Below are positions 10,028 through 50,897 of a DNA stretch of 64,000 bases, piece by piece; positions within the stretch are counted from its first letter, which is position 1, and each line of letters opens with the position of its first letter. The DNA lies in assembly GCA_964621445.1 (NCBI GenBank), contig CAZUNO010000002.1, positions 32,001 through 96,000 on the forward strand, written 5' to 3'. The position numbers were made by a program, and so were the translations under genes. The notes below the pieces were generated by a model. It ran no database searches and was not told the origin of the DNA. It saw only the letters and a program-made list of their open reading frames with translations. The DNA comes from Candidatus Hadarchaeota archaeon (lineage in GTDB: Archaea; CAYQAE01; CAYVLA01).

Positions 10028-10052
10028 GCCTCTGGCCGTCTGGCAATTATTT

Positions 10053-15129: not shown

Positions 15130-15276
15130 CCTCCAAGAATAGCGGAATGATTTACTGGAACTTCCGCATTGAATCCAGCAAATACATATTTGCCCTGCTC
15201 CTTTGGCCCGACAGGTCACTACATTCCCTTGGCTTCTCCGGATCCATTTTAAGAATAATCCAACATTTAGCAACTG

Positions 15277-16016: not shown

Positions 16017-16081
16017 ACCCGGGGATCAAAAAAAGTAATGGCGGGAATCCAGTTATCAGCCCAGGCCAGGATGGTAAATCA

Positions 16082-17056: not shown

Positions 17057-17173
17057 GGAAAGTTTTCTTAGTTTGGTTATGGTTCCCTAATAGGACTAGA
17101 TGGTTTACGTCTTCACCCAAAAATAACTGGGCGAAAACCCAGCTTGCAGGGATTCTAAGGAGGAACCAGCAGG

Positions 17174-35990: not shown

Positions 35991-36587
35991 GTGAAGATAA
36001 TGCTTAAGATAGAGAGGCAAAGGGAGACGAAGGAGACGGATGTATCCATTACCATGGATTTTGATGGATCCGGAAAATCCTCGATAAGTACCGGACTACC
36101 CTTCTTCGACCACATGTTAACCTCCATGGCCAGACATGGAAGGATAGACACCGAGATAGATGTTGAGGGGGATCTTGATGTAGACGACCATCACGTTACC
36201 GAGGACGTGGGAATAGTTCTCGGCGAGGTGATCCTGCAGGCCCAAAAGGAAAGACCCTCGATCCGACGCTTTGGGAGCGCCATAATACCCATGGATGATG
36301 CGCTTATACTCATGGCCATTGACCTTGGGGGCCGGACCTACGTGGATCTAAAGGTCGACTTCAAGAAGGAGTATGTCGGAAGCTTCGTCCTGGATAACAT
36401 CAAGCACTTCATGAGATCGATGGCCGATACCGCCTACATGAATCTCCATGCACACAAGTTATCGGGCAGCGACGATCACCACCTGGCGGAGGCACTATTC
36501 AAGAGCCTGGGAATAAGCCTCTCCCAAGCCCTGAAAAAGGATCCCTCACTCTCCGGAGAGATTCCCAGCACCAAGGGCAGGATCTAG
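35991..36587 (+). CDS. hisB: Imidazoleglycerol-phosphate dehydratase
   Basis: RETKETD, FFDHML, DDHHVTED, PMDDAL, DHHLAEALFK, PSTKG. Confidence 0.95.
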   Translation: MKIMLKIERQRETKETDVSITMDFDGSGKSSISTGLPFFDHMLTSMARHGRIDTEIDVEGDLDVDDHHVTEDVGIVLGEVILQAQKERPSIRRFGSAIIPMDDALILMAIDLGGRTYVDLKVDFKKEYVGSFVLDNIKHFMRSMADTAYMNLHAHKLSGSDDHHLAEALFKSLGISLSQALKKDPSLSGEIPSTKGRI

Positions 36588-37249
36588 GACGCTTCATTTC
36601 TTAGGGCTTTTAGGATAAGGAAAATGGCCACCCTTATCCCGCACCACACGGTAACCCCCCGCACGTACTTTTCATACTTTACCGGTACCTCCTTTACCCG
36701 TAGACCCTTGCGCCTCGCCTCGTACAGCAGCTCCGACTCTATCTCGTACTGGTTGGCGGTTAGGTCCATTCCTTCAAGAGCCGAGGCTCGTATGGCCTTC
36801 AACCCGCTCTGGCTATCCCTGACTGGGTTTCGAGTAATCGCATTGGTCAGCTTGGTAAGTCCCCAGTTCCCGATCCTCATGATAAGGGGCGCCGAATCGA
36901 AATAATTGACCCGGTTTCCCAGAACTATGTCCGCCTCGTCATTGAGGATGGGCTCCACCAGGTTGGGGATGTCACTCGGGTAGTGCTCGCCATCACCGTC
37001 AAGCCTTAGAATGATCTCGGCGTCGTATTCCTCCGCTTTCTCCAGCCCTTTCCTGTATGCTGATCCAACTCCCTGGTTCCTATCGATCTTGAACACCTTA
37101 GCCCCTCCCGCAGTCGCCTCCTGGGAGGATAGATCGGTGCTCCCATCATCGATCACTATAACGTTGTCCACATACTTTGAGGCCTCACGGGCTATTTCCT
37201 GAATGGTTTTCTCCTCGTTGTGGACCGGGATCACGCAAATGGTCTTCAA
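36584..37249 (-). CDS. GT2 polyprenol-phosphate glycosyltransferase (DPM1/ArnC-like)
   Basis: VIPVHNEEKTI, VIDDGSTD, NQGVGSA, LDGDGEH.P, DIVLGNR, DSQSGLKA. Confidence 0.9.
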   Translation of the reverse strand: MKTICVIPVHNEEKTIQEIAREASKYVDNVIVIDDGSTDLSSQEATAGGAKVFKIDRNQGVGSAYRKGLEKAEEYDAEIILRLDGDGEHYPSDIPNLVEPILNDEADIVLGNRVNYFDSAPLIMRIGNWGLTKLTNAITRNPVRDSQSGLKAIRASALEGMDLTANQYEIESELLYEARRKGLRVKEVPVKYEKYVRGVTVWCGIRVAIFLILKALRNEAS

Positions 37250-37297: not shown

Positions 37298-37999
37298 TCA
37301 TTTTCTACTCCAGGCAGCGTCTGGTCCCTCATCCACTATCTTTCCATCAACTATGACCAAACCTCTCTTGCAATGCTTAAGAAAGTTGGGATCATGGCTT
37401 ACCGTGATAATGGTTACCCCCAGGTCCTCGTTTACCCTTCCCAGCAGCTCGTAAACCCTTTCCGATGACCTCGAGTCCAGATTTCCGGTCGGCTCGTCCG
37501 CCAGAAGTATTTTTGGATTATTCGCCAGTGCCCGGGCTATGGCAATTCTCTGTTGTTCCCCACCGGATAGCTGATCAGGCTTATTTAAAGCCCTCTGCTT
37601 GAGCCCGATCAACCCAAGCAATTCGCTGGATCTACTGCTCCTGGACTGGCTATCCTTACCTGATAGGACCATGGGGAATTCGATGTTTTCAACCGCGGTT
37701 AGGGTTGGTATGAGATTATATGACTGGAATACAAATCCAATGGTGTGCAGTCTAAGATCCGATAACTCGTCATCGGAAAGCTGTGAGGTATCGCGTCCGA
37801 ATATCTCTACCAGTCCCGAATTTGGTCTATCCAGACAACCCAAAACGTTCAGAAGGGTCGTTTTTCCGGACCCGGAAGGGCCGGAGACTAACACGAAATC
37901 AGCTTCATCTACACTCAAGCTTACTTCTAGGAGCGCTTCCACCTCGATTTCGCCCGCTTTGTAGATTTTTCGCACTTTACGAGTCTCTACTGCCTTCAA
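37298..37999 (-). CDS. ABC ATPase of the LolD/MacB type
   Basis: GPSGSGKTT, IGFVFQSYNLIP.LTA.EN, LSGGEQQR, LADEPTGNLD. Confidence 0.93.
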   Translation of the reverse strand: MKAVETRKVRKIYKAGEIEVEALLEVSLSVDEADFVLVSGPSGSGKTTLLNVLGCLDRPNSGLVEIFGRDTSQLSDDELSDLRLHTIGFVFQSYNLIPTLTAVENIEFPMVLSGKDSQSRSSRSSELLGLIGLKQRALNKPDQLSGGEQQRIAIARALANNPKILLADEPTGNLDSRSSERVYELLGRVNEDLGVTIITVSHDPNFLKHCKRGLVIVDGKIVDEGPDAAWSRK

Positions 38000-38020
38000 T
38001 TTGGCCCCTCAGGGAGCTGG

Positions 38021-38050
38021 GAAACCCTTTAAAAGTATTCTGATAAATAT
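38021..38050. promoter_or_regulatory. Overlapping divergent promoters between the ABC ATPase and the permease operon
   Basis: Plus strand GAAACCC-TTTAAAA (38021-38034), ~22 nt before ATG 38056. Minus strand ATATTTATC (38042-38050) upstream of the GAGGGG RBS and TTG 37999. Confidence 0.5.
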
Positions 38051-38055
38051 TCCCC

Positions 38056-39207
38056 ATGGCCGAGGCCCAATCGATCTGGAAGATGGCCTTTAGGAACCTC
38101 TCGAATCAGAACAAGACCACTATACTAACAGTGGCGGCCATAGCAGTCTGTGTGATGACCTTTGTCTCCATCTTCTCAATCCTCGACGGCCTCCAGTTGT
38201 CCGTTGAGAAGGTAATTAGAGGCTTCTACGGGGAGGAAGGTAGAAGTGCATATGTACTTCCCGCTTCGGATGAAATCGAACAGGGACTTATACCCCGTGC
38301 GGTGGCCGAGGAATATAGAGGACTTGATGATGTATACGGCCTTTCCGAGGAGGATGTGGTGAATTCTTACTACCAGGGAAGAGAGGTGGACCTTCTCGGA
38401 GTTAATCTGGATGACCTTGACGCCACCCACGGATTCCAGGGAATTGATGGCAGGAGCATGGAGAAGGGACCGGAATGCATGGTGGGCTCCACGGCCGCCG
38501 AAATACTTGGCATAGATGTCGACCAAGAGATATCATTGGAACTGGATGACAGCACCGTCGACCTTTTGGTTACGGGAATATACGAGGCCAAGACGTCCCT
38601 CAATGCGAATATCCTGGTGAATAACGAATTCCTTTCCTCCAGAATTCCCCGGTTTAAGGTCAATACCTCCATGCTGCGTATTAAGCTCAAGACGGGAAAC
38701 CTGGAATCGGTAGCCGAATTCACCGAGGAAAACCACCCCGAACTCAGAATCAAGGAATCTGTTCAGGTGAGCAAGTTCTTCCAGAAATCCATCATAAACA
38801 TCTCCCGCCTTCTCAGCACCATCATTATTTTCGTTATACTGCTGATGGTCCTTGGTATATACAATTCAATGAACATGGTGGTTTCGGAGCGAAAAAGGGA
38901 AATTGGGATAATAAGGGCTATGGGAGCCAGGAGGTCCTTCATAGTCAAACTGTTCATGGCCGAAAGTACTATGCTTTCACTTCTAGGGGGCTTATTCGGG
39001 GTCGGGTTGGGAATAGCCATGTCGCATGGAATCACATCGATCTTTTCCATCTTCGTTGCCGGTTCCTCATCTGTCGCTCCCCTCACCAAGCTCACCACCA
39101 TTGGCTGGGCCATGTTTGCCTCCCTGTCGATAGGGCTAATTGGAGGAATTTCCCCGGCAAGTAATGCCTCCAAGGTGGAAATCTCAAGAGCCCTCACGGA
39201 GGTGTGA
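38056..39207 (+). CDS. FtsX/LolE-type ABC permease with a MacB-like extracellular domain
   Basis: MAFRNL...TILT.AAIA, ECMVGSTAA..LG, VSERKREIGIIRAMGA, PASNASK. Confidence 0.92.
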   Translation: MAEAQSIWKMAFRNLSNQNKTTILTVAAIAVCVMTFVSIFSILDGLQLSVEKVIRGFYGEEGRSAYVLPASDEIEQGLIPRAVAEEYRGLDDVYGLSEEDVVNSYYQGREVDLLGVNLDDLDATHGFQGIDGRSMEKGPECMVGSTAAEILGIDVDQEISLELDDSTVDLLVTGIYEAKTSLNANILVNNEFLSSRIPRFKVNTSMLRIKLKTGNLESVAEFTEENHPELRIKESVQVSKFFQKSIINISRLLSTIIIFVILLMVLGIYNSMNMVVSERKREIGIIRAMGARRSFIVKLFMAESTMLSLLGGLFGVGLGIAMSHGITSIFSIFVAGSSSVAPLTKLTTIGWAMFASLSIGLIGGISPASNASKVEISRALTEV

Positions 39208-42200
39208 ACATAGAGAGCCGTCTTCTCCATGCCATGAAGATATTTCCTCGTCACAGAATGTGGCTATCCTTAGCCGGGATAATGGTATGCGCCATTCTCT
39301 TCTTCGGGGTGCTCTCCGTGGTTCACTGGCTTAGCTATTCCTCAACCTCCTACTTCGGAGAGCAAGAGGGCATATACGTACTGGCGCAGGAGGAGGCGGC
39401 CACCGTCAAACAATCACAAGTTCCCCTCGCCCTGGCTCCGGCACTAACCAGGATGAATGGAATCCAGGTGGTTTGCCCCGAACTCTTCATATATGGGGTG
39501 TTAAATGATAAGGCTGTCATAATCCGTGGGATATTCCCATCGGATTTCCAATCACTTGAACCGGTCACCCTGATTCAAGGGCGGTGGCTCAGGGACGACG
39601 ATATCAAGGCCGCCGTGGCTGGCCAGAATCTAGCCCGAAAACTGGATCTGAAGGTGAACGATACCTACCTGCTTTCAGGATCCGAGGTTGATGACTTCGT
39701 CAGGATCAGGATCGTGGGCATCTTCAAGGGAGGGGGAATGATTGATGACGACCTACTCATGAACATACACTACGCCAGGTATCTCCAACAGGAAACACAA
39801 CCCGGTTATGCCTCAATAATCCGGGCCAAGGTCAACACCACCATCTGGCCCAGCGTAGAAAGCATCTGGCAATCGGTCAGCGGACTTCCCAATATAACGC
39901 CGCTCCAATATGAACCAACTGCTCCCAACAACACCCAGAGACTGCATTTCACCTGCAATGCCACAGCTCATACCGAAGTGGGCTCGGTCATACTCTACTA
40001 CAAAAAGCAGGGTCTCCATCGCACAATCCAAAAGACCATGATAAAGGGAAATTCAAGTCAGTTTAGGACCCAGATCGGCCCTGTGAAGGACTCCTCATGG
40101 GTACTTTGTTGGGCCAACGCCACTGATATTTTGGGCCACGATCGACGGACGCCTGAGGTTAACATCTCAATAACAGATGCCCTGGGACCGGACATATTCG
40201 ATCTGACAATTGAACCGCCCCCGCCCCAGACAAAGGATCACCTGGTAAACGTCTCCTTCAAGGTATTCGATACAAGCGAAATGGTCAGGAACGTAACCGT
40301 CCACACATATAATGTTGGACTTAATCGTACATTCCACGGAAAGGACTCCACGGGGCGGGCTTACGAGCTAACCCTGGGAAGGTTTGAACCGGGACCATTG
40401 ACCCTTTGGATATCCGCCCGGGATAGATTCGGCAATCTGGCACGAACGGCTCGATACAGGTACAGGATCCTCAATAGGACCGATCAATCCCCTCCCGAAA
40501 TAGGTGAGATGGTATTCGAGCCTGACCCCCCGAATGACAACTCCACCCTGACCGTGAACGTTCCAATGTTCGATGACTCAGAGATCGTTACCGCCGACCT
40601 TATCTATGACTATCAGGTCAAGGGCATTCACTACAATGGGACCCTTAAGATGAATAGAAGCCAGGCCCAGGAGGGCCTTTGGGAAGCGGTAACCGGTTCC
40701 TTTCCGGGTGCCACAACGATTCATTTCAGGATATTCGCCAGGGACCAATTCGGGAACGCCGTATACTCGGAGACCAGGGATGTATTCGTGAGATACTCGG
40801 AGCCACCGGAGGAGCTCCAGGTCTACAGATTCCCCCAATATTCCACTCCCGGCCTCAATAATCTGGTATTCGCCGTTCTCTACGACGCGGCGGAGATCCA
40901 GGAGGTCAACTTCACCTTCGTGGAAGCGGGTAGATGGACCAACCTCTCCATACCCGTGGGGATAACTACCTTTAGGGAACCCTTTCTCCTGGGGCGCCTA
41001 TCAACCGGGTTCAAGGAATATAATCTCTCCATGGAGGACAGGCGGGAAGAGGTGACCAGATATCCAGGACAGGGACTGGAAGGGTTCCTTGTTCAGCGAA
41101 AAAGACCCCACATAGAGGATATACAGTATTCCTCGACTGTAAGGAAGGGCTTTCCCCTAATGGTGACCTTCAGGGCAGTCGGCGTCTTCCCACTAAGCGA
41201 GGTATATACCACCGACTCCAGAGGGGTAGTGGAAAAATGCGAAAGGATTGAGGGTGAATATACCGCGATCCTGGGTCCATACTCCAAGCCGGGTGACTAC
41301 TCCTTCAGTATAACTACCCAGGACTGGGCGGGCAATACACGGACCATTGAAGACCGGGAATTCACCGTAGAGGAGGAATCGATAACCGATATCGACTTCA
41401 CGCCAAAACCGCCCATTCTGGGAGAGGAGCTAACCGTGACCTGTAGGGTGATCGGGGACTCTCCCCGCAAGAAGGTCCGGCTCATAGCACCTGTGGGCGG
41501 CAAGTACGTGTTGACTCCAATGGAATTGGAGGAGGGGAGGAGATTCGCGTCCATACCCATCGATAGCCCTGGTATTCTACCCTTCTCGGTACAGGTCGAG
41601 GATGGAGAGGATCTGATACGCTCAAAAACCGTACGGCTTAACGTCGGTTCCAACCACTCATCATTGTACCTGGCTCACAGCCCACCCCATCCTCTGAGTA
41701 CCCAGAATATAACAATCTCCATCTTTGCCAGGTCGGGTCATAACCTGAAATCGCTGGAACTGGAATGGAAAAATGGATCCCACGAGATTCCACATCGCAA
41801 GGTCTGGAGGCTAGAGGGGACGGAAACGAGATTAGACTTCAAACCGGGAAGGCAAATAGAGGGGACCCTTCTTTACAGGGCAATTCTTACCACTGAAATG
41901 GGTAGCCTTACCTATCCCCTGACGGAGGACGAGTGGCTCGGGATCTCCATCACCAAAAACCTGTTTACCCCCCCGGAAATTGGAAGATTATCCCTATCCC
42001 CCCAGACTTACGTGGGACTGGATGGGAACAGGGGACAGGATTTCCTTGTTGAGGTCGGTTGCCCAATTTCCTTTGACCAGGGTATATCCTCGGTTGAGAT
42101 AGATTACGTGGTAGACCAGAGAACCTATAACGAGCCACTCCTACCGGTTTCCCGGAAATACGGGCTCTCCTCAAGGTTTTATTCAGCCTATCTCGGTCCC

Positions 42201-45200
42201 TTCCCCACCAACGAGACCATAAGTTGTCAGGTCACTGCCAGAAGCATCTCGGGATTGGAATCCTCCACCCCGGAGGTGAGCTATGTCCTCCGGGATACGG
42301 AACCTCCGGAGATACAGGATATATATCACGACCCCCTACACCCTGAACCCAAAAAGGAAATAACCATTGGGTGCGAGGTAACCGATGACTCGGGTGTCAA
42401 GGACGTTTTGCTGCTGTACGGCGGCAATGGCACCCAAAATGCAGAGCGCATGATGCGGTACGGAAATACCTACACTCTGGACCTTCTCTCCCCGCCCGCG
42501 GGCGAATCCCTCACCTATGCAATACAGGCCACGGATAACTACGGCAACAGCAACCAGTCCTTGCCGGGTACCGTTACCTCTAGGGACGAAACCCCACCCG
42601 ATATATGGGAGGTCACCCATGACCCGCTGGAACCAACGGATAATGACAGCGTCAACATAACCGTCCGACTCATCGATCGGCAGGATGAAATCGAAAACGT
42701 GACCCTACTCTGGTACCAGTACACCTGGAAGAACCAGACCAAGAAGGGGGGCAGCGGGTACATTACCAGGGTATTCCAGATCGATGCCTCTGAGTTTGAC
42801 CCGGGAATGAACGTACGGTACAAGATCGAGGCCTTTGACCGTTCGGGAAACAAGGCGGTCTACCCCAACGTAGAGCAGGGAGAAACGCCTCCTTCTCCAC
42901 TTCTCTATGGCGATAATCCTAATTCCCTGAGACAGGAAGCATGGGAACCCTATCTCACCTTCCGGGTTGTCGACAGATCCCCTCCCGTTCTCACCCTTGA
43001 TGCCCAGCCCGAAAGTCCAAATGAACTTGAAACCGTTACCTTCGAGGTGTCAGCGGAGGACAATCACCTTCTCAGGAACTACACGCTTCACCTATGGGTG
43101 TCAGGGGTTTACAGGCCTTTCAGCGAGCAGGTAGGTCGTCCTAGCTTCAGGGACGAGTTCTCCTCCGGTCCCCTAGAACCGGCATCCACCATAGTTTGCT
43201 ATCTTGAGGCATACGACAGGTCCGGTAATTATGCCCGGTTTCCGGCTCGCTCCAACCTTACCATAGATGTGGAGAGGTTCGAATGGGGAGGCGAGATGGC
43301 CGCCGTCGATCCCAGGGTTGACCTTGAAGTCGCCGGCCCGGCCGGTTTTTCTCAGGGAATGGCCAGACAGGGAGCGGGAAAGATAATCGCCAGCATAAAT
43401 GGCATCCTTTTCATGACCTTTCTGGCCACCGTGGCCGGCATCGGCAATATAGTCTACACCTCGGTTTTCAAATCGAAGAGGGAAATAGGCCTGGTCCGAA
43501 CATTAGGGGGGAGCAAGAAATTCGTCACCCTTCTGGTGGCCTCGGTTACCGTCCTGCTGGGCCTGACCGCTGCCTTGATCGGGTGTGTAATTGCCTACCT
43601 GCTGATAACGGTGTTTTCTAACCTAGGAGCCTCCCTTGCCTGGGTCACCTTGAAGCCCACATTCAATATCCTTATTCTGGCAGCGACTTCAGCGGCCGCG
43701 GTGACCATTAGCCTCTTCGGTGGAATGGTAGCCCTTACCAGGCTTTTTTCATATACCCCTGTGGAATCGATAAGGACGGTGACCGCGCCCCAAGCGAAGA
43801 GGGAGCATCCAACCTACATCGAGAATACAAGGCGTTTCCCCGCAAAGACCATCGCCGTTTTACTCCTCATCACCATTAGTGCCGCTGCCATGATGCGCCT
43901 ATATCCTACATATATCTCCGAGCAGCCCTTCGATCCCGATTCCTGGTTGCACCTAACCGCTGCATCCGATATGCGGGAGACCGGCCATCTGAGACTCGAT
44001 TACGCTTCCCGGGAAATGCAGGCGGTCAGCGCCCTCCCTGGCCTCAACATCCTGCTGGTCGTATCCCAGGTATTGACCGGGAGCGAGATGATCCCAGCGA
44101 GGATCATAACCCCCATCATATCATCACTTGGCTTGATCCTGGCCTTTGTACTGGCCAGGAAACTCTCCAGGAGCGATATCGTGGCAGGAATGACCGCGAT
44201 CATACTGGCAGTGGTTGGCTTTTATGCCAACCGAACGGCAGCGCTTACCAAGGAGGCCCTCGCACTCCAGATGCTCCTACTCTGCCTCTACATGTTATAC
44301 CTAAGCCACATCTCCAGAAGCACCAAGCACAAGACTCTGCTAGTTGCCATTTCCGTTGCCCTGATGCTGACCCATCACCTAACGGCCATCTATTTCATGC
44401 TGATTTTTGTGGGATACATCTTTCTGAGAATCTTCCACAAGTATTCCCAGGGTGTCATCGACCCCCTGGAGGTCAAGCAGGATGCCCTAACCGGTCTTGG
44501 GGTCCTAACCAGCTATCTTATCATCAGCTTCACCCTGGGCAAGTACGAAACTCCGATACCATTCCAGGACTCCCTTCTGATAATATCCCTGTTCTTCGTG
44601 ACCATCGGATTCGGAAGAATTTTGCTTTCGTCATCATTCTTGGGCCAGCACCGGAGATCTATATCCCTGGTCGCAGCCCTGGGTACGGTTACCTTCCCCT
44701 TCATCGCCTACCGCGCCGGGCTCTTCTCCTACGCACCATGGGAACAGGTCCTCCCCATGATAGCCCCCCACTTGTCCCTTCTGGCCATAGCGATCCTGGC
44801 CCTGTTCCCGGTCTCCCTGCTCTCAGAAAATCGAAAGTCCTTCATCTTGGCCTGGGCCTCTGCCGTGATTCCCTTCCTATTATTTGGACTTGTCAAAAGG
44901 GATATCTTCGGCTACATACTGCTCTTCAGGAACATCTCATACGGTTATCAACTATCGGCCATATTGGTAGGCATCGCCTTCGTCTATGCCTACAAGCGTT
45001 TCGAGGCCGGAGGTCAGGATGGAATCCGCACCGGGCTGGTTGCCATAGCCGCGGTGCTCCTCATGACCAACCTTCTATTCGCCTCCCACATGGGTTTTCT
45101 GTCCCGCCCTTATGAGAAGAAGGACCTATACACGACCACGGAGTTCAACGCGGCCTTGAAGGTGAACCAATCAACCCTAAGAGGTCAGCTGGTAGGGTCG

Positions 45201-45500
45201 GACGAACGTGGTCGCCGGCTTCTATTGTACGTAACTGGGGAGGATGGAGACCAGATCACGACCTACGTCTATATGATCAGGATGGAAAAATGGTTAATAA
45301 ACAGGCTTAACGAACAGGTCAACTTGACCGAGAAGCCGCTGACCCATATCCTCACCTATGACGAGATGTTTGAGGTCGGTTTCGTGGATCAGGTACTGTT
45401 CAAGGATGTGGAAAGGCTAGAGCTCAATCGATATGAGGACGTCATTCTGGACAACGGCGGTGAACACCTCATTTACGTGGCCAGGAAGGAATGGCCGTAG
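39204..45500 (+). CDS. 2098-aa fusion: TM + MacB head + ~11 Ig-like repeats + FtsX permease + GT-C-like membrane glycosyltransferase
   Basis: QGRWL...VAGQNLARKL; repeats D..PP.I...P..P...V.D...A.D..GN (~39890-43290); KREIGLVRTLGG (~43476); DPDSWLH...ETGH (~43932), KEALAL, LTHHLT and more than 10 further TM segments. Confidence 0.85.
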   Translation: MNIESRLLHAMKIFPRHRMWLSLAGIMVCAILFFGVLSVVHWLSYSSTSYFGEQEGIYVLAQEEAATVKQSQVPLALAPALTRMNGIQVVCPELFIYGVLNDKAVIIRGIFPSDFQSLEPVTLIQGRWLRDDDIKAAVAGQNLARKLDLKVNDTYLLSGSEVDDFVRIRIVGIFKGGGMIDDDLLMNIHYARYLQQETQPGYASIIRAKVNTTIWPSVESIWQSVSGLPNITPLQYEPTAPNNTQRLHFTCNATAHTEVGSVILYYKKQGLHRTIQKTMIKGNSSQFRTQIGPVKDSSWVLCWANATDILGHDRRTPEVNISITDALGPDIFDLTIEPPPPQTKDHLVNVSFKVFDTSEMVRNVTVHTYNVGLNRTFHGKDSTGRAYELTLGRFEPGPLTLWISARDRFGNLARTARYRYRILNRTDQSPPEIGEMVFEPDPPNDNSTLTVNVPMFDDSEIVTADLIYDYQVKGIHYNGTLKMNRSQAQEGLWEAVTGSFPGATTIHFRIFARDQFGNAVYSETRDVFVRYSEPPEELQVYRFPQYSTPGLNNLVFAVLYDAAEIQEVNFTFVEAGRWTNLSIPVGITTFREPFLLGRLSTGFKEYNLSMEDRREEVTRYPGQGLEGFLVQRKRPHIEDIQYSSTVRKGFPLMVTFRAVGVFPLSEVYTTDSRGVVEKCERIEGEYTAILGPYSKPGDYSFSITTQDWAGNTRTIEDREFTVEEESITDIDFTPKPPILGEELTVTCRVIGDSPRKKVRLIAPVGGKYVLTPMELEEGRRFASIPIDSPGILPFSVQVEDGEDLIRSKTVRLNVGSNHSSLYLAHSPPHPLSTQNITISIFARSGHNLKSLELEWKNGSHEIPHRKVWRLEGTETRLDFKPGRQIEGTLLYRAILTTEMGSLTYPLTEDEWLGISITKNLFTPPEIGRLSLSPQTYVGLDGNRGQDFLVEVGCPISFDQGISSVEIDYVVDQRTYNEPLLPVSRKYGLSSRFYSAYLGPFPTNETISCQVTARSISGLESSTPEVSYVLRDTEPPEIQDIYHDPLHPEPKKEITIGCEVTDDSGVKDVLLLYGGNGTQNAERMMRYGNTYTLDLLSPPAGESLTYAIQATDNYGNSNQSLPGTVTSRDETPPDIWEVTHDPLEPTDNDSVNITVRLIDRQDEIENVTLLWYQYTWKNQTKKGGSGYITRVFQIDASEFDPGMNVRYKIEAFDRSGNKAVYPNVEQGETPPSPLLYGDNPNSLRQEAWEPYLTFRVVDRSPPVLTLDAQPESPNELETVTFEVSAEDNHLLRNYTLHLWVSGVYRPFSEQVGRPSFRDEFSSGPLEPASTIVCYLEAYDRSGNYARFPARSNLTIDVERFEWGGEMAAVDPRVDLEVAGPAGFSQGMARQGAGKIIASINGILFMTFLATVAGIGNIVYTSVFKSKREIGLVRTLGGSKKFVTLLVASVTVLLGLTAALIGCVIAYLLITVFSNLGASLAWVTLKPTFNILILAATSAAAVTISLFGGMVALTRLFSYTPVESIRTVTAPQAKREHPTYIENTRRFPAKTIAVLLLITISAAAMMRLYPTYISEQPFDPDSWLHLTAASDMRETGHLRLDYASREMQAVSALPGLNILLVVSQVLTGSEMIPARIITPIISSLGLILAFVLARKLSRSDIVAGMTAIILAVVGFYANRTAALTKEALALQMLLLCLYMLYLSHISRSTKHKTLLVAISVALMLTHHLTAIYFMLIFVGYIFLRIFHKYSQGVIDPLEVKQDALTGLGVLTSYLIISFTLGKYETPIPFQDSLLIISLFFVTIGFGRILLSSSFLGQHRRSISLVAALGTVTFPFIAYRAGLFSYAPWEQVLPMIAPHLSLLAIAILALFPVSLLSENRKSFILAWASAVIPFLLFGLVKRDIFGYILLFRNISYGYQLSAILVGIAFVYAYKRFEAGGQDGIRTGLVAIAAVLLMTNLLFASHMGFLSRPYEKKDLYTTTEFNAALKVNQSTLRGQLVGSDERGRRLLLYVTGEDGDQITTYVYMIRMEKWLINRLNEQVNLTEKPLTHILTYDEMFEVGFVDQVLFKDVERLELNRYEDVILDNGGEHLIYVARKEWP

Positions 45501-46310
45501 GTGCTTGTCTTGGAGAGATCTTTGGCCATCAGAGTAGACATCGACACCATCAAGGGGCTCTTGGATGGGGTCCCCATTCTACTGGACATGTTCGACGACC
45601 TGGGAATCCAGGCCACGTTTTTCGGCTGTGTGGGGCCGGATAAGACCTCGAGAAGTTTCCTGCAAGCTCCGCGAATCGCCAGGCATGTTTCCGTAAATCC
45701 CCTGAAAAAATTCGGGCTCCGTGAAATCATGGGTTCCATTAAAGGCCTTGATTTCCGCAAGCATGACGGGGAACTGAGGGAGATCCAGGAAAGGGGCCAC
45801 GAACTACAGCTCCACGCCTTCGATCATCTGGATTGGATAAAAAGGGTGGAGAACCTTGACCTATCGGGGACCAGGTCACTTATCGAGAGGGGCATACGTA
45901 GCTTTGAGGCAATCACCGGCAGGAAACCCCGGGGTTTCGCATGTCCAGCCTTCAGGGTTACGGAGAATGTCCTGCTGGCTGAACAGGAGCTGGGATTCGA
46001 CTATGCAAGCGATTATCATGATCTTCTGAGGACTGTTCCCTTCAAGCCGCAGGAATCATCGGTTCTACAGATACCGGTGAACGCTCCTCTGATAGAAGAT
46101 ATGGTAGCAAAGGGTTTGAGCGATGCGCAAATACTATCCAGGCTCAAAAACATTGTAGATCAAACCCCGCTGACCGTGTTTTATCTACATCCCTGCTATG
46201 AGCCTCGGCTAAAAGGGGACCTACTGAGGGATTTCATAGAACAGGCCCTGGAAAAGGCCCGTCATGTGAAATTTTGGGAGGTGTGGAAAAGCTGGAGTCA
46301 TTGCGCATAG
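45501..46310 (+). CDS. ArnD-family lipid-linked amino-sugar deformylase/deacetylase
   Basis: IRVDIDT..G...GVP.LL, VGPD, HELQLHAFDH..W, QIPV..P and F.LH...E match the ArnD motif order (RIDVDT, VGPD, HEVGLHAWDH, QIPVTLP). Confidence 0.85.
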   Translation: MLVLERSLAIRVDIDTIKGLLDGVPILLDMFDDLGIQATFFGCVGPDKTSRSFLQAPRIARHVSVNPLKKFGLREIMGSIKGLDFRKHDGELREIQERGHELQLHAFDHLDWIKRVENLDLSGTRSLIERGIRSFEAITGRKPRGFACPAFRVTENVLLAEQELGFDYASDYHDLLRTVPFKPQESSVLQIPVNAPLIEDMVAKGLSDAQILSRLKNIVDQTPLTVFYLHPCYEPRLKGDLLRDFIEQALEKARHVKFWEVWKSWSHCA

Positions 46311-47464
46311 TGATGATCTACGAGCTGGGACCTAAGGACGACGGTTCATTTCTCGGTGGCATAGAGTCCCACATACTGGGTCTTGCCAAGGAGCTAGCTC
46401 ATGACCATCAGGTAACCATTCTAACCGGCGCCATACCGGGGGAGAGAGATAAAACTGATCTCGATGGGCTGAATGTCATTAGATCCGATATCATGGGAAT
46501 GGTTTCTCGATCCTGGAACCCCACCAACCTTACAACGAGGCGACAGATCTTCTCCACCCCCGCCTTTCTAAGGACGGGAATCGACCTGGATGCCGACATT
46601 TACCACGGACATATTTACACCTCGGGGATTTCAGCTCTGGGCCTGGCATCGCTTGGTTCCGGTGGTTCGGTTAACACCATACACGGGTCCTACTATGACC
46701 ACTGGGAATCAATTACCAACTCGAGCCTCAAACCCCATGCCTACAGAGTGGCCGAGAGATTATTGGCAACGTTCCTAGCTCGCAATTGCGATAGACAGAT
46801 ACACACGGCAACCGATTTCGCGGTTAAGGTCAGGCAGTGGGGGGCACCGCAAGAAAAGGTCCAGGTAATACTCAACGGGGTTGATACCGATAGATTCTCA
46901 CCTCAGGTAAATCCCCGCGAACAATCGGACATACCAATAGTGATGACGGTTCGTCGGTTGGTACCCAAGAACGGGGTCCACCATTTCATCCAGGCCTGCA
47001 GCCATTTGGAGAGGGAATCTAGATTCGTTATAGTTGGCGATGGTCCTTCCAGACCGGGTCTAGAGTCGCTGGCGAGGAGGATAGGGGTGGACGACCGGGT
47101 TGAATTCCGTGGCGCAATTCCCAACAACCAGATGCCAGGAATCATCGCCGGTGCCGACGTGTTAGTTATCCCCAGTTTGGTCGAGGCCTCCAGCATATCC
47201 CTATTGGAGGCAATGGCCATGGCAAAGCCAACGGTGGTCACCAACATACCGGGCATCGACGAGGTAGCAAGTCCGGAGAGAAGCATCATGGTTCCACCCG
47301 GGAACCCCGAGGCCATCGCAACGGGCATTGATCACCTTCTATCCGATAGGAAGAAAGCGAGGGAACTTGGAAGAAAAGGACGAGAATACGTGGTCGCTAA
47401 TCGATCCATCAAGAAGATGACGGAGAAAACAATGATCATCTACCGCCAGGCACTCGAGTCCTAG
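46301..47464 (+). CDS. GT4 glycosyltransferase
   Basis: GGIESHI, NGVDTDRF, RRLVPKNG, PSLVEASSISLLEAMA; TTG start with GGAG RBS. Confidence 0.92.
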   Translation: MRIVMIYELGPKDDGSFLGGIESHILGLAKELAHDHQVTILTGAIPGERDKTDLDGLNVIRSDIMGMVSRSWNPTNLTTRRQIFSTPAFLRTGIDLDADIYHGHIYTSGISALGLASLGSGGSVNTIHGSYYDHWESITNSSLKPHAYRVAERLLATFLARNCDRQIHTATDFAVKVRQWGAPQEKVQVILNGVDTDRFSPQVNPREQSDIPIVMTVRRLVPKNGVHHFIQACSHLERESRFVIVGDGPSRPGLESLARRIGVDDRVEFRGAIPNNQMPGIIAGADVLVIPSLVEASSISLLEAMAMAKPTVVTNIPGIDEVASPERSIMVPPGNPEAIATGIDHLLSDRKKARELGRKGREYVVANRSIKKMTEKTMIIYRQALES

Positions 47465-47838
47465 ACCCTGGACAGCAGGATCAAGGCCAGTATACCACAC
47501 CCGATCCCTGCCGCTATCCTCAGATCTACCTCCTCGCCCAGCAATACAACGCATAGAACCGCGAACAGGACGTTTCCCAGGACAATAACCAGGTTCAAGC
47601 CCAGTACGGCAGGTACATCGTTTGACAGGAAAGCCAGATCCACCGCCAAAACCACCAGGCCCATCAGAAGAACAAGGTAGACATATGGATTTCTAGCCAG
47701 GGAGAAAAGAAAGGATGGGCTCAGGACCTGGGATAGCGAGGTTTCGTCGAGCTTATCCGCTGCAACCTTGTGAAAAAAGAGATTAAGACCACTAAGCACT
47801 CCAGCAACTATGGCGAATAATAGGATCTTACCCTGCAA
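47461..47838 (-). CDS. EamA/SMR-like 4-TM protein (ArnE/ArnF-like flippase candidate)
   Basis: 125 aa, 4 TM helices, ending VLLGEEVDLRIAAGIGCGILALILL (EamA-type end). Confidence 0.7.
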   Translation of the reverse strand: MQGKILLFAIVAGVLSGLNLFFHKVAADKLDETSLSQVLSPSFLFSLARNPYVYLVLLMGLVVLAVDLAFLSNDVPAVLGLNLVIVLGNVLFAVLCVVLLGEEVDLRIAAGIGCGILALILLSRV

Positions 47839-47840
47839 GT

Positions 47841-48656
47841 TTAGCCCCCCGAGGCTTCAGCCGCCCTCTCCTGGCTGGACTCCACCCTCCTAAACACGAA
47901 GAACCAGAAAACGAAGATCCAACCTATAAAGAACACGAAACCAAAATAGTCATGGAAGGTCTTCATGGCCTCAAACCCTATATAATAGGTTATGAGAGAA
48001 AGAACCACTATCCTCACTATATTGGCCGAGTAGGTCCCGGCCGCCCCCACAAGGAAGTAAACGCTACCCATCTTCTTGTCCATCCTATCCCTGAGATCAA
48101 CCAGCATCATGGCGAAGAAAGCCAGGAACAGGAAGGAGGAATGGATCCCCGAACAGGCCTCAGTAACCAGAAGGGTCACCGGCCGAGAGTGGTCGGGGGC
48201 TGAAAGAACTATCTCGTTTCCTGCTCCCGAAAAGGGAATACCCATCATGCTCAGCACCGCCCTGGAAAAATACATCACGTTTCCAAGCCAGGCCCTGCCG
48301 AAAGAGGTCTCCAGTATGTACTTATCGAATCCAATGGTTATCAAGAAATAAAAAACCAGAACCGGGGTAACGAAGAAGTAAAGCAAAGTCCGATAACGTA
48401 GCAGAAAATCGTACTCCCGCGACAGATAGCGATAGGCCAGGAACAAGGAACCGATCCCCACAAAAACCAAGCCGGACGCAACAGCCAGATCAGAGGAACG
48501 AACACGCTGGAAAAGGACGTATGAAACAAGCGCAAAAGCCAGGTACCCATAACCGAGGATCGAAACCTGAGAGAACGACACATTCTCCTTTATGGCGGAG
48601 ACCGGCCTCATAGAGATGAAGGACAGCGTATATCTAATAAATGGCTTGCGAATCAC
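47841..48656 (-). CDS. Archaeosortase/exosortase-family transpeptidase
   Basis: Polytopic protein with the triad motifs VTEACSG (Cys), ANIVRI (Arg) and FHDYFG (His). Confidence 0.9.
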   Translation of the reverse strand: MIRKPFIRYTLSFISMRPVSAIKENVSFSQVSILGYGYLAFALVSYVLFQRVRSSDLAVASGLVFVGIGSLFLAYRYLSREYDFLLRYRTLLYFFVTPVLVFYFLITIGFDKYILETSFGRAWLGNVMYFSRAVLSMMGIPFSGAGNEIVLSAPDHSRPVTLLVTEACSGIHSSFLFLAFFAMMLVDLRDRMDKKMGSVYFLVGAAGTYSANIVRIVVLSLITYYIGFEAMKTFHDYFGFVFFIGWIFVFWFFVFRRVESSQERAAEASGG

Positions 48657-49631: not shown

Positions 49632-50897
49632 TTGCCTGGGATGGGCCGCAAGAAAATAATCATTCTAGGTATGGGTAGGATAGGGCTACCCACTGCTGCA
49701 TGTCTAGCCAACGCTGGTCACCAGGTACTTGGAGTCGATATAGATCAACGAAAGGTTGCCGATATCCGCGAGGGGAGGATAGATGGCAAGGAACCTGGAT
49801 TATCCGAAATGGTACTATCGGCCATGGAGTCGGGGACCCTCCGCATTTCAACGGAGCCGGTCCGGGGCGACGTATTCCTGCTTTGCCTGCCCACCCTGCT
49901 CAAGGAGGATAGGACATGTGATCTATCGGCCATTTCCTCCGCGATGGACTCCATATCAAATGTCATCTCGCCGGGCAATCTGATTATCCTGGAATCCACC
50001 GTGCCGGTACATACCACCCGGGATTTCCTGATACCTGGGCTGGAAAAGAGAGGAGTGGACACCTGTAAGGTGCTCTTCGCTTATGCCCCGGAGAGAATAA
50101 TGTCGGGAAGAATGCTGGAAGAGATAAGGAAGGATGACCGGATAATCGGTGTCACAAGTGAAAAGGCTGCAAAACTAGCCAGAGAGGTGTACGAGAGCTT
50201 CGTTGAGGGGGACATTTTCATTACCGATACCTCCACGGCCGAATTGGTGAAGCTCGCGGAAAACACCTACAGAGACATAAACATAGCTTACGCCAACGAG
50301 GTCGCCCTCTTCTGTCAGCGGGAAGGGATCGATGCCCGACGTGCAATAGAGCTGGCCAATAGGCATCCCCGGGTTGAGATACATCGCCCAGGACCCGGAG
50401 TTGGAGGCCACTGCATACCCGTGGTCCCTCATTTCCTGGCCCAGAATAATAGCTACGATATGATGATAAAAGCGGCGAGAAAAGTAAACGAATCCATGCC
50501 GAGATATATAGCCAACATGATAACCAGGACCATAAGCGGAGCGGAGCAACCAAAGGTCTCCCTTATGGGCATGGCCTATAAGTCCGGCTCAGGGGACACC
50601 GTAAACAGCCCGGGATTACAGATTCTGGAGCATCTCCAGGGTGAGAGGATGGAAATTCTCCTATGCGACCCACTTGTAAGAAACCAGGAAATGGACCTTG
50701 TGGAAATGGAGGAGGCCCTTTCATCGGACTGCATCGTCTTTCTAGTCGCCCATCAGCAATTCAAGGAAATTGATCCACCCAAACCCAAGAAGGCCATGGC
50801 GACCGTCATAGATACCGCAAACTGCATAGAGCCGCGGAAATGGATCCGGCAAGGCTGGAAAATTAAACGTTTCGCATCCAAGAATCCTAAGGCTTAA
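49632..50897 (+). CDS. Nucleotide-sugar dehydrogenase (UDP-HexNAc 6-dehydrogenase, WecC/WbpA-like)
   Basis: GMGRIGLP, ESTVP, APER, KLAENTYRDINIA.ANE, PGPGVGGHCIP. Confidence 0.9.
   Translation: MPGMGRKKIIILGMGRIGLPTAACLANAGHQVLGVDIDQRKVADIREGRIDGKEPGLSEMVLSAMESGTLRISTEPVRGDVFLLCLPTLLKEDRTCDLSAISSAMDSISNVISPGNLIILESTVPVHTTRDFLIPGLEKRGVDTCKVLFAYAPERIMSGRMLEEIRKDDRIIGVTSEKAAKLAREVYESFVEGDIFITDTSTAELVKLAENTYRDINIAYANEVALFCQREGIDARRAIELANRHPRVEIHRPGPGVGGHCIPVVPHFLAQNNSYDMMIKAARKVNESMPRYIANMITRTISGAEQPKVSLMGMAYKSGSGDTVNSPGLQILEHLQGERMEILLCDPLVRNQEMDLVEMEEALSSDCIVFLVAHQQFKEIDPPKPKKAMATVIDTANCIEPRKWIRQGWKIKRFASKNPKA

Follow-up and report, generated by a model that had tools for sequence, protein, structure and literature searches.

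Genes of the locus

The window analysed here (the whole stretch of DNA, 64,000 nucleotides from a Candidatus Hadarchaeota archaeon) contains adjoining genes for an ArnD-like deacetylase and a GT4 glycosyltransferase, a nearby gene for an archaeosortase, a number of other genes, and two candidate substrates for the archaeosortase (Table 1).

Table 1. Features of the window that bear on the cassette (positions are those of the window)
Feature	Position	Strand	Basis
Candidate archaeosortase substrate, 771 aa, secreted-type	5240..7555	+	tail: IPD, hydrophobic stretch, basic residues
Weaker candidate substrate, beta-propeller-type	8840..10090	-	PF13360 4.9e-10; tail: GE, LPYLP... hydrophobic stretch, KHSR
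GT2, polyprenyl-phosphate sugar synthase-like (AglJ/PpgS/ArnC-like); locus context	36584..37249	-	PF00535 3.4e-25
MacB/Lol-type ABC ATPase (-), FtsX permease (+), 2098-aa FtsX fusion (+)	37298..45500	mixed	PF00005, PF02687, PF12704
ArnD-like CE4 (NodB-fold) deacetylase/deformylase; cassette core	45501..46310	+	PF01522 1.1e-11
GT4 (GT-B, retaining-type), distinct archaeosortase-linked clade; cassette core	46301..47464	+	PF00534, PF13439
Four-helix membrane protein, 125 aa, lineage-specific	47461..47838	-	four hydrophobic segments
Archaeosortase, unnamed ArtC-like subfamily; cassette core	47841..48656	-	PF09721 2.7e-17
Membrane protein, 285 aa	48663..49520	-	four hydrophobic segments
NDP-sugar 6-dehydrogenase, UDP-ManNAc-dehydrogenase-like	49632..50897	+	TIGR03026 3.2e-110, over cut-off

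The GT4 gene encodes a bona fide member of its family, with strong Pfam matches (2.6e-33 for PF00534 and 6e-19 for PF13439), no predicted TM helix, and EX7E glutamates, K and RR that are invariant in all 57 of the GT4s compared. Its start codon at 46301 is a TTG, with alternative starts at 46283 (a GTG that gives the 393-aa form on record) and 46274; whether translation begins at 46301 or 46283, the gene overlaps the stop codon of the upstream deacetylase (TAG, 46308-46310).

The translation starts L/M-RIVMIYELGPKDDGSFLGGIESHILGLAKELAHDHQVTILT and contains RRLVPKNG further inside, the two segments that had led the original prediction to liken the protein to PIG-A, the GT4 of GPI synthesis. That prediction had cautioned that GG.E.H is common in GT4s. 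Within this genome it is the RL..KG-type segment that is generic (found in about 6 of the 15 GT4-like ORFs); the GG-I-E-S-H-I-type segment is not, occurring among those 15 only in the cassette GT4. Homology to PIG-A in particular is not borne out: the PIGA domain (PF08288) does not match the GT4 even at E<=10, and a search of the genome with that domain returned nothing over cut-off. The best NCBIfam match is instead the XrtA-system glycosyltransferase TIGR03088 (1.3e-32; 113 bits against a cut-off of 409), with BshA (84 against 274) and MshA (74 against 463) likewise scoring under their cut-offs. A profile of the GT4 family (A1; 24 sequences, 38-65% identity) finds its nearest solved relatives in BshA (5d00, 3.2e-36) and MshA (3c48, 2.4e-35), both over their full length, and matches PimA (1.4e-24) through the C-terminal half only. 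In a 44-row GT4 tree built without PIG-A, the cassette GT4s form a clade of their own (support 99, deeper forks not settled), apart from Asgard GT4s that match the PIGA domain; with one of these, a PimA-like protein, the cassette GT4 shares its N-terminal motif and 30% identity over 366 residues.

The deacetylase, for which neither a TM helix nor a signal peptide is predicted, appears to be soluble and cytoplasmic. It matches NF011923 (ArnD) at 3.2e-29 (102 bits, under the cut-off of 382) and the XrtA-system deacetylase TIGR03006 at 1.6e-7 (31 bits against a cut-off of 276); its nearest solved structure is that of ArnD (8t0j; 7.4e-18, residues 8-246). Residues D13, D15, H105, H109, D171 and H230 are conserved in 52-54 of 54 orthologues. 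Fusions of the deacetylase were looked for and none was found, which counts weakly against the anchor reading proposed below.

The archaeosortase, the single match of its kind in the genome, exceeds the cut-off of TIGR04178 (57 bits against 23) and falls under that of ArtC (TIGR03762; 60.5 against 100), and its C168, R215 and H235 are invariant in 51 of 51 sequences. Ten ORFs of the genome (0.95 expected) carry P[ED] immediately before a C-terminal hydrophobic stretch and basic tail. Of the two substrates that had been proposed for the enzyme, the 771-aa protein is among these ten, whereas the tail of the beta-propeller-type protein, though made up of the same three parts, has no P-E pair. Tails of the [IVL]PEF type are encoded beside foreign cassettes; only one of eight tails from this genome scores over the cut-off of an NCBIfam sorting-signal model.

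Genes that surround the three

The neighbouring genes supply the candidates for additional GPI-like roles that the original prediction had listed, namely (beside the deacylase) the GT2 and the ABC/FtsX module. The notion that the locus as a whole mirrors GPI synthesis is nonetheless weakened, in that conservation of the GT2, flippase and GT-C candidates with the cassette stops at the borders of its own lineage: the genes for the GT2, the ABC/candidate GT-C proteins and the small membrane proteins are particular to that lineage and lie outside the cassette core. The entire locus is syntenic in all three same-family genomes (G002-G004), including the ABC/FtsX module and the 125-aa ORF. The latter has only faint Pfam matches (DUF2177 0.011, EamA 0.22) and 16 homologues, all 65-100% identical and none with a Pfam domain; no counterpart was found in Asgard or Halobacteriota cassettes, and to call it flippase-like is a guess. 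The 285-aa membrane protein has no family match in Pfam or NCBIfam, and 40-42% identical copies occupy the same place in G002-G004; it is syntenic within its own lineage only. The GT2 matches AglJ (8.5e-35), PpgS (3.1e-26) and ArnC (2e-8), all under cut-offs; GT2s 38-41% identical to it occur in the foreign cassettes L005 and L010, and the Asgard cassettes carry a GT2 of another kind. The dehydrogenase, syntenic in G002 and G003, scores 332 bits with NF008286 (under the cut-off of 459), and a UDP-sugar dehydrogenase or UDP-GlcNAc 2-epimerase is also encoded in the foreign cassettes L110, L005 and L010; the dehydrogenase of the window, an accessory and not a core gene, could supply a HexNAc-uronate donor.

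A cassette conserved across three phyla

The deacetylase, GT4 and archaeosortase genes form a conserved cassette core. In a survey that covered three archaeal phyla and 58 loci centred on the GT4, the GT4 is present in all 58, the deacetylase in 54 (in each case adjoining the GT4) and a complete sortase ORF in 51; when the 811 ORFs of these loci were clustered, only these three families proved common to all three phylum groups. A search for related loci, in which 80 were kept, included eight in named genomes that are orthologous to the GT4 locus (39-44% identity over nearly the full length). All eight have the deacetylase next to the GT4, and the sortase lies no more than 4 kb away in all six that have enough flank.

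Among 251 sampled Asgard genomes, 24 contain a total of 25 orthologous GT4 loci. At 22 of these the sortase shares the contig of the GT4 and is no more than 4 kb away (partial genes counted); in three GT4-bearing genomes it is on another contig. The sortase subfamily is present in all 24 GT4-bearing genomes and, at E<=1e-27, in only four of the 227 without the GT4; two Asgard cassettes (L110 and L111) contain the GT4 and sortase with no detectable ArnD-like gene. Within a Halobacteriota sample of the same size (251 genomes), the sortase lies within 4.1 kb of 27 of 29 GT4 loci (partial genes counted), and the GT4 is present in every one of the 25 genomes where the sortase match is strong (E<=1e-40). 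Genomes inside one phylum are related, so that the counts for both samples overstate independence. No sortase was found in two Halobacteriota genomes with the GT4, which there lies less than 1 kb from the start of its contig.

Gene trees of the GT4, deacetylase and sortase each place the top split between Halobacteriota and the Asgard plus own-phylum sequences (support 98-100), indicating a shared history. The surroundings of the cassette differ between groups. Those of Asgard archaea include a GT2 and one more GT4 (with, in addition, a GH114 glycosidase in L111 and a faint EpsG-like protein in L107). The Halobacteriota cassettes are flanked by housekeeping genes, and most of these loci consist of the three genes only, there being neither a polymerase nor a flippase nor another glycosyltransferase within 8 kb; one glycosyltransferase and one deacetylase therefore appear to suffice. 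No published description of an archaeal GT4-deacetylase-archaeosortase cassette was found in the literature consulted, which did not extend to Haft 2012.

A possible route to an amino-sugar anchor

The reading that we favour, at a probability of about one half, is that the GT4 and the deacetylase together produce a sugar with a free amine, probably attached to a lipid, and that this sugar resolves the acyl-enzyme of the archaeosortase. The cytoplasmic GT4, as its BshA- and MshA-type relatives suggest, would use a UDP-sugar to add an N-acetyl-hexosamine to an acceptor on the cytoplasmic side of the membrane. That acceptor could be a polar archaeal lipid such as archaetidylinositol, a polyprenyl phosphate or a small head-group precursor; since the acceptors of BshA and MshA are soluble, a lipid is not implied by the homology of the GT4. 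The cytoplasmic, metal-dependent deacetylase, to judge from its ArnD-type relatives and conserved metal site, would then take off the N-acyl group to yield a free amine, and the product would reach the outer face, in this organism perhaps with the help of the four-helix protein of 125 aa or of the ABC machine encoded nearby. There the archaeosortase would act on secreted proteins, cleaving their C-terminal P-E-type sorting signal by way of a cysteine thioester, and attack on that thioester by the sugar amine would leave the protein C-terminus joined to the amino sugar by an amide bond and held at the surface.

The suggestion in the original prediction that sortase substrates might be joined to an amino-glycolipid fits the cassette as comparative genomics reveals it in three phyla. 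The genes and their families, the intact catalytic residues, the linkage, the common history and the candidate sorting signals are observed; the donor, acceptor, flipping and transpeptidation itself are what we infer. Linkage of the genes indicates a shared process but does not establish the sugar as the nucleophile. A lipid-based rationale, in which the cassette provides a substitute amine lipid where PS decarboxylase is missing, was considered and rejected as not general: the decarboxylase was not found in this genome (96% complete), yet it is present in five of five other cassette genomes tested. Inositol-1-phosphate synthase is present here; its distribution is not discriminating in either Halobacteriota (24 of 29 cassette genomes against 137 of 251 overall) or Asgard archaea (20 of 24 against 184 of 251).

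One alternative, which we consider unlikely, is a surface-glycan locus resembling those of PEP-CTERM/XrtA systems, where the GT4 and deacetylase serve to make an envelope polysaccharide or glycolipid that has lost part of its N-acetyl groups and the sortase handles proteins associated with or attached to the polymer, the sugar being no dedicated lipid anchor. The TIGR03088 and TIGR03006 matches point in this direction, as do the GT2, NDP-sugar dehydrogenase and ABC/putative GT-C machine around the cassette in the window and the extra carbohydrate-related genes of the Asgard cassettes. Those XrtA-type matches are, however, far under their cut-offs, most of the Halobacteriota cassettes have no polymerase, flippase or additional glycosyltransferase in the surrounding 8 kb, and a cytoplasmic ArnD-like deacetylase fits the type that acts on a lipid-linked monosaccharide rather than an exported polymer.

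Even harder to sustain is an Arn-like pathway separate from the sortase, whereby the GT2 makes a polyprenyl-phosphate-linked N-acyl amino sugar, the ArnD-like enzyme deacylates it, the small membrane protein flips it and a GT-C enzyme transfers it to a lipid or glycan, leaving the GT4 and sortase to other envelope tasks. ArnD is both the best solved and the best NCBIfam relative of the deacetylase, the GT2 resembles synthases of the ArnC/PpgS/AglJ type, and the 125-aa ORF has four predicted helices and presumably the size of ArnE/F; but the genes that accompany that of the deacetylase from phylum to phylum are the GT4 and sortase and not a GT2, GT-C or small membrane protein, the deacetylase gene overlaps the start of the GT4, and the three gene trees agree.

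A GPI-type pathway by descent, with the GT4 an archaeal PIG-A orthologue making GlcNAc-archaetidylinositol, the deacylase in the role of PIG-L, and GT2 and GT-C enzymes adding further sugars before a transamidase-like attachment, is very improbable: the paralogue-unique GG-I-E-S-H-I-type segment and its occurrence in the PF08288-matching Asgard protein, the inositol-1-phosphate synthase and the GT2 candidate in the same locus speak for it, but the PIGA-matching Asgard GT4s, none of them from a cassette genome, reach 76-198 bits with the family profile, where orthologues from the cassette reach 441-611, the seven PIG-L genes of this genome lie elsewhere (with no GT4 among 37 annotated ORFs within about 4 kb of them), and the absence of the PIGA domain, the non-homologous deacylase and sortase and the lack of conservation of GT2 and GT-C with the cassette in other phyla argue likewise.

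Comparison with known systems

The amino-sugar anchor that we favour can be set beside several known pathways. Bacterial PEP-CTERM/XrtA (EpsH) systems likewise combine genes for a polytopic Cys-Arg-His enzyme of the exosortase family, a GT4 and a CE4 deacetylase of the cytoplasm, and act on substrates with a P-E-type motif, TM segment and basic tail. Their marker genes (TIGR03088, the GT4 'stp2', and the polysaccharide deacetylase TIGR03006) are the best NCBIfam match of the cassette GT4 and a secondary match of its deacetylase, both far under cut-off; so far as the account in PMC7468200 goes, the acceptor is not known in either system. The present enzymes differ in being archaeal, with a sortase of an unnamed ArtC-like subfamily, and often amount to three bare genes, without a large EPS locus or FemAB-like and asparagine-synthase-like genes.

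In Methanosarcina, artA is syntenic with pssA/pssD, and an amine lipid has been proposed as the nucleophile that resolves the thioester (according to PMC7157517); there and in Haloferax volcanii, as that source describes, the archaeosortase depends on enzymes that make amine lipids (PMC7157517). That subfamily is ArtA/PGF-CTERM as opposed to ArtC-like with P-E-type signals, and here the linked enzymes are a GT4 and CE4 deacetylase, so that the amine would belong to a sugar and not to ethanolamine. The logic of an amine nucleophile is otherwise the same as for ArtA with archaetidylethanolamine and for the linking sugar of the T9SS.

The T9SS of Porphyromonas and Tannerella (PorU with Wbp/Vim) provides, in the description of PMC7468200, an experimental precedent for the transfer of protein C-termini, by a sortase-type enzyme, to the sugar amine of a glycolipid: the cargo becomes attached to a linking sugar, the CE4 deacetylase VimE is proposed to expose the amine of that sugar, and NDP-HexNAc dehydrogenase steps feed it, much as an NDP-sugar dehydrogenase adjoins the cassette here. 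Its authors also offer the speculation that, where an exosortase locus includes a deacetylase and glycosyltransferases, it makes the unknown acceptor (PMC7468200). In contrast, PorU is unrelated to exosortases, the T9SS is a bacterial outer-membrane LPS anchor, and VimA adds an amino acid to the freed amine, whereas the present cassette lacks a FemAB-like gene.

Two further pathways resemble individual steps. MshA and BshA, the nearest solved relatives of the GT4 family, belong to mycothiol and bacillithiol synthesis (MshA/B/C and BshA/B/C), where GlcNAc transfer is followed by de-N-acetylation and then by acylation of the GlcN amine; the acceptors there are soluble (malate, inositol phosphate), the deacetylases are of the PIG-L/LmbE type and the ligases are cytoplasmic. 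The Arn pathway of lipid A (ArnC, ArnD, ArnE/F, ArnT) includes the best relative of the deacetylase, ArnD, which removes the formyl group from an amino sugar carried on polyprenyl phosphate at the inner face, and the window locus also offers a GT2 and a small four-helix membrane protein; the ArnD equivalog cut-off is not reached here, and the partners conserved across phyla are the GT4 and sortase rather than ArnC/E/F/T-like genes.

GPI synthesis (PIG-A, PIG-L, PIG-K) shares the order of events: a GT4-type enzyme transfers HexNAc, a metal-dependent enzyme de-N-acetylates it, the product is flipped, and a cysteine enzyme puts a glycolipid in the place of a hydrophobic C-terminal signal. Among the parts, the GT4 alone is related at so much as the superfamily level, and it lacks a PIGA domain; the deacylase is CE4/ArnD-like rather than PIG-L, and the sortase a polytopic PF09721 protein rather than a C13 peptidase, as the original prediction had itself cautioned in calling both analogues. 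GPI anchoring also joins the protein to ethanolamine phosphate and not to de-acetylated GlcN, so that the analogy is inexact. The cassette would nonetheless build a sugar-lipid anchor by GlcNAc transfer and de-N-acetylation and attach it with a cysteine transpeptidase, using parts non-orthologous to those of GPI, which suggests that archaea with the cassette may fasten surface proteins to an amino sugar by a mechanism that is GPI-like in its working and not in its descent.

Gene content of the locus

The window is of archaeal origin (its genes include those for RadA, RPA, a tRNA-intron endonuclease and ABCE1), and its genome belongs to a phylum that is represented by only five species genomes in the collection. 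Three of its genes, encoding an ArnD-like deacetylase, a GT4 glycosyltransferase and an archaeosortase, form what is termed here the 'cassette', and are accompanied by a small membrane ORF for which Pfam and a homologue search returned close homologues only, and no family. The stop codon of the deacetylase gene (46308-46310) falls within the start region of the GT4 gene.

Positions of the cassette genes and the intervening membrane ORF in the window
Feature	Position	Strand	Remarks
CE4/NodB-type deacetylase	45501-46310	+	directly upstream of GT4
GT4 glycosyltransferase	46301-47464	+	start TTG 46301 or GTG 46283
125-aa membrane ORF, four predicted helices	47461-47838	-	
Archaeosortase	47841-48656	-	PF09721

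A separate glycan-active run of genes occupies positions 10053-21216 of the window, and includes a further deacetylase (PF01522), a beta-helix protein, a pair of DUF4838 proteins whose N-termini are of GH type, and a sulfatase that has a C-terminal chitobiase domain; this content suggests the turnover of a sulfated glycan.

Conservation of the cassette

In named public genomes, eight orthologous GT4 loci (39-44% identity) were found among 80 of 499 relatives, distributed over Heimdallarchaeota, Methanoperedens, Methanomicrobia and one Halobacteria MAG. An ArnD-like gene adjoins the GT4 gene in all eight, and an archaeosortase gene lies within 4 kb in each of the six that have enough flanking sequence. 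Larger samples gave counts that are not independent trials, because genomes within a phylum are related. In 251 Asgard genomes, 25 orthologous GT4 loci were found in 24 genomes, with the sortase gene on the same contig and no more than 4 kb away at 22 of the 25, and on another contig in the three remaining genomes; only four of the 227 genomes that lack the GT4 carry the sortase subfamily. In 251 Halobacteriota genomes, 27 of 29 loci have the sortase gene within 4.1 kb (mostly at about 1 kb), the GT4 genes of the other two lie less than 1 kb from a contig start, and every genome with a strong sortase match (25/25) also has the GT4.

When the 811 ORFs of 58 GT4-centred loci were clustered, only three families were common to all three phylum groups: the GT4 (58/58), the deacetylase (54/58) and a complete sortase ORF (51/58). 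Two of the four loci without a deacetylase are cut by contig ends, and the other two (L110 and L111) are real exceptions. The surroundings differ from group to group: in the lineage of the window the locus is syntenic from the GT2 gene through to endA in all three same-family genomes, and its GT2, small membrane protein and ABC/GT-C genes are lineage-specific, while the cassettes of Halobacteriota are flanked by housekeeping genes (NAC, a PUA-domain protein, methyltransferases, YjeF). Because the three genes recur together in three phyla amid such unrelated surroundings, they point to a single functional unit. Trees of the three genes, based on the 49 loci in which all are present, display the same split, Halobacteriota versus Asgard plus the phylum of the window, with support of 98-100.

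Two bacterial loci with GT4s 31-32% identical to that of the window were rejected as cassettes, as neither has a deacetylase or sortase match at E<=1e-8. In the Halobacteriota sample the cassette is carried by several single-contig genomes, possibly with cultured strains among them. One Heimdall-type genome harbors two copies of the GT4-sortase pair, on contigs C82 and C65 (loci L095 and L108), with a spacing of 2.2 kb in each. Proteins with a ribophorin-I domain (PF04597, a eukaryote-type oligosaccharyltransferase subunit) are encoded about 6 kb from Asgard cassettes (L003:15170-17263 and L008:16281-18449, for example), in a cluster present at 9 of the 25 Asgard loci. In two Methanoperedens loci (L005 and L010) the cassette is found with a UDP-GlcNAc 2-epimerase, an AglJ/PpgS-like GT2, an Rce1-like CAAX protease and DUF1616, the DUF1616 gene of L005 being flanked by two FtsX permeases; these surroundings partly mirror the ABC-linked locus of the window.

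The glycosyltransferase and the question of PIG-A

Assignment of the glycosyltransferase to GT4, a family of retaining GT-B enzymes, is supported by matches to PF00534 in the C-terminal domain (115 bits) and PF13439 in the N-terminal one (69 bits), and both glutamates of the EX7E motif, together with K and RR (the phosphate-binding K/R), are invariant in 57 of 57 orthologues. The original prediction had likened this protein to PIG-A, the catalytic subunit of the GPI GlcNAc transferase, on the strength of its N-terminal segment and the string RRLVPKNG, both of which occur in the translation as quoted, and had cautioned that GG.E.H is common in GT4s. Within the genome, the RL..KG-type motif is found in about 6 of 15 GT4-like ORFs, and the GG-I-E-S-H-I-type motif is confined to this GT4.

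Orthology with PIG-A was not borne out. The PIGA domain (PF08288), which sits between the first beta-alpha-beta unit and the remainder of the N-terminal domain, finds no match on the GT4, even at E<=10; the best match in the whole genome is on a different contig and scores 12.8 bits, where the cut-off is 27. Because control archaeal genomes likewise remain under the cut-off, the domain is mainly a mark of eukaryotic PIG-A. A profile of 24 members of the GT4 family, compared with the PDB, lies closest to BshA (5d00, 3.2e-36, full length; 2jjm and 3mbo, about 8e-40) and MshA (3c48/3c4q, 2.4e-35, full length), with PimB' and PimA further down and aligned over the C-terminal half only. In these comparisons 5d00 and 7qsg are named in the search output, and we take 2jjm and 3mbo to be BshA and 3c48 and 3c4q to be MshA. 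No PIG-A chain is among the PDB matches listed. In four of 251 Asgard genomes a GT4 barely passes the PIGA cut-off, and none of the four carries the cassette; with the family profile, these GT4s and weaker relatives of theirs reach 76-198 bits, versus 441-611 for the orthologues. In a 44-row tree, whose deeper forks are unresolved and which includes no eukaryotic PIG-A, the cassette GT4s form a clade of their own (support 99), apart from the PIGA-matching clade.

The identity of the partner gene points the same way, being PF01522/ArnD-like and not of the PIG-L family. All seven PF02585 (PIG-L) genes of the genome are on other contigs, and their surroundings (to about 4 kb), with 37 annotated ORFs, include no GT4. 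Sequence comparison also provides one point partly in favor of the PIG-A idea, namely 30% identity over 366 residues, with the N-terminal motif in common, between the GT4 and one PimA-like, PIGA-matching protein. Taken together, these comparisons do not support the GT4 as an orthologue of PIG-A, and place it in a part of GT4 that is rich in GlcNAc transferases. BshA and MshA take UDP-GlcNAc as donor and transfer GlcNAc, after which their products are de-N-acetylated and the free amine is acylated.

Two other GT4 paralogues in the genome, on contig C22 (29583-33659 and 16511-19530), group with the PIGA-matching, PimA-like Asgard GT4s, and two PIG-L-family genes are found 10-13 kb away from them. 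For a true pair of the GlcNAc-inositol-lipid type, these paralogues are better candidates than the GT4 of the window. Twelve PIG-A motifs (CM1-CM12) have been published (Tables 3-4 of PMC2446393).

The deacetylase and the archaeosortase

The deacetylase has the NodB fold (PF01522, 45 bits), and its best relative is ArnD, the 4-deoxy-4-formamido-L-arabinose-phosphoundecaprenol deformylase, in both NCBIfam (3.2e-29) and the PDB (8t0j, 7.4e-18, with residues 8-246 aligned, nearly the full length). The Asp and His residues of the metal site and of catalysis (D13, D15, H105, H109, D171 and H230) are conserved in 52-54 of 54 orthologues, and no TM helix is predicted. Since its score with the NCBIfam ArnD equivalog is 102 bits versus a cut-off of 382 (106-111 bits for cassette copies from outside its lineage), the enzyme is best classed, on sequence grounds, as ArnD-like rather than ArnD. 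A search for fusions of the deacetylase among longer proteins returned none at E<=1e-10, which is weak evidence.

The archaeosortase, the only one detected in the genome, belongs to its family by PF09721 (63 bits) and TIGR04178 (57 bits versus a cut-off of 23), has at least six hydrophobic segments, and displays Cys168, Arg215 and His235 as invariant residues in 51 of 51 relatives. Among the named subfamilies, none of whose cut-offs is reached, ArtC (TIGR03762) is the best, at 60.5 bits versus 100, and five cassette sortases from outside the lineage match it at 41-49 bits; by these scores the subfamily is ArtC-like and unnamed. A Pfam scan of the sortase gives PF09721 only, and not the soluble-domain, caspase-like Cys-His peptidase fold of PIG-K (peptidase C13), of which it could be an analogue at most. 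The caveat of the original prediction, that the deacylase and the sortase are not homologues of PIG-L and PIG-K, is thereby confirmed, the former being CE4/ArnD-like (PF01522).

Sorting signals

A three-part tail is present at the C-terminus of 128 ORFs of the genome; in ten of these P[ED] directly precedes the hydrophobic stretch (0.95 expected), in the form [IVM]PE in eight of the ten. These ten, which include the product of 5240-7555, are likely candidates for substrates of the sortase, judging from their tails. Tails of the [IVL]PEF type adjoin cassettes outside the lineage. NCBIfam sorting-signal models were mostly silent on the 16 tails scanned: the PEF-CTERM model (TIGR03024) matched one tail from outside the lineage, under its cut-off, and the PEP-CTERM model matched one of eight tails of the genome itself over its cut-off. 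PEF-CTERM is reported as the recognition signal of ArtC (PMC5244752).

At a distance of 3-6 kb from the cassette, four Halobacteriota loci (L120, L125, L128 and L130) encode NosD/beta-helix proteins with a PGFE, hydrophobic and basic tail resembling PGF-CTERM, in genomes where the cassette sortase is the only match to the sortase profile; the signal specificity of the subfamily may accordingly be broader than P-E. NCBIfam also has a model for a surface-protein sorting domain, 'Heimdall-CTERM' (NF045529), seen on L125:14640-15236; the sortase of the Heimdall cassettes could be the one that serves it. The genome of the window harbors about 25 paralogous ORFs, each about 410 aa long and scattered over many contigs (C1:102311-103549 and C9:24799-26037, for example), with a conserved tail of the form ..WVY.IE / W...LWTLMV / RR.LYRE.. 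(a hydrophobic stretch and a basic segment); much of the surplus of Glu ahead of C-terminal hydrophobic stretches in the genome comes from this family.

A proposed mode of action

The original prediction was of a GPI-like pathway in which every role had a candidate at the locus. The linkage of GT4, deacetylase and sortase is conserved; the GT2, small membrane protein and ABC/GT-C genes, being specific to one lineage, do not share in that conservation. A GPI-like way of working is plausible, and rests on this strong conserved gene linkage.

The substrate of ArnD is a lipid-linked amino sugar, which it deacylates on the inner side of the membrane. This chemistry and that of BshA and MshA, together with the precedents of ArtA and T9SS, lead us to read the cassette as the maker of an amine-sugar nucleophile for its sortase: the GT4 and the deacetylase would produce a sugar bearing an amine, and that amine would serve as the nucleophile. 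The donor, the acceptor (a lipid or another molecule), flipping and transpeptidation are all steps that we infer. In its most specific form, to which we assign a probability of roughly three in ten, the archaeosortase subfamily would join secreted proteins to a membrane lipid (for example, glucosaminyl-archaetidylinositol) through an amide bond made directly with the amine of its de-N-acetylated hexosamine, in a prokaryotic glycolipid anchor that parallels GPI, is made by a portable cassette of three genes and would reveal a class of acceptor for the exosortase family in general. Its range would then span Heimdall-type Asgard archaea, the methanogen and methanotroph relatives in Halobacteriota, and the small phylum of the window. 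The two loci that truly lack a deacetylase do not fit the amine-sugar reading.

No phosphatidylserine decarboxylase (PF02666) was found in the genome of the window, rated 96% complete; as a general rule, the idea that a sugar amine substitutes for lacking archaetidylethanolamine is dismissed by the presence of that decarboxylase in all five of the other cassette genomes examined. Inositol-1-phosphate synthase is present, on contig C17, and was rejected as a marker of an inositol-lipid acceptor because it is too widespread to discriminate; one survey used E<=1e-30, which may have lost weaker true matches.

Significance and comparison with known systems

The acceptor molecule that exosortases and most archaeosortases use for their substrates has long been sought, and only ArtA has been linked to one, indirectly, in archaetidylethanolamine. 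A minimal cassette that crosses phyla singles out two enzymes, the product of which could be prepared in vitro and sought on protein C-termini, and thereby renders the question of the sortase acceptor directly testable. Should the nucleophile be the sugar amine, a GPI-like glycolipid anchor of independent origin would exist in archaea, among them close relatives of the ancestor of eukaryotes. No description of the archaeal cassette was found in literature searches on archaeosortases (Haft et al. 2012 or Fig. S7 of PMC7468200 could bear on priority), and no NCBIfam model names any of its three genes.

Bacterial XrtA systems are already known, from NCBIfam markers, to be accompanied by a GT4 and a deacetylase, and the same logic, if true for the cassette, would probably extend to bacterial PEP-CTERM systems. 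ArtA requires PssA and PssD, artA is syntenic with both of their genes in Methanosarcina, and resolution of the ArtA thioester is proposed to occur by way of the archaetidylethanolamine amine (PMC7157517); an amide bond connects T9SS cargo with a linking sugar, exposure of the amine of that sugar by the CE4 deacetylase VimE is proposed, and exosortase loci with a deacetylase and glycosyltransferases are speculated to make the acceptor (PMC7468200). The proposed working of the cassette follows the logic of both ArtA and T9SS as systems of sortase-type enzymes.
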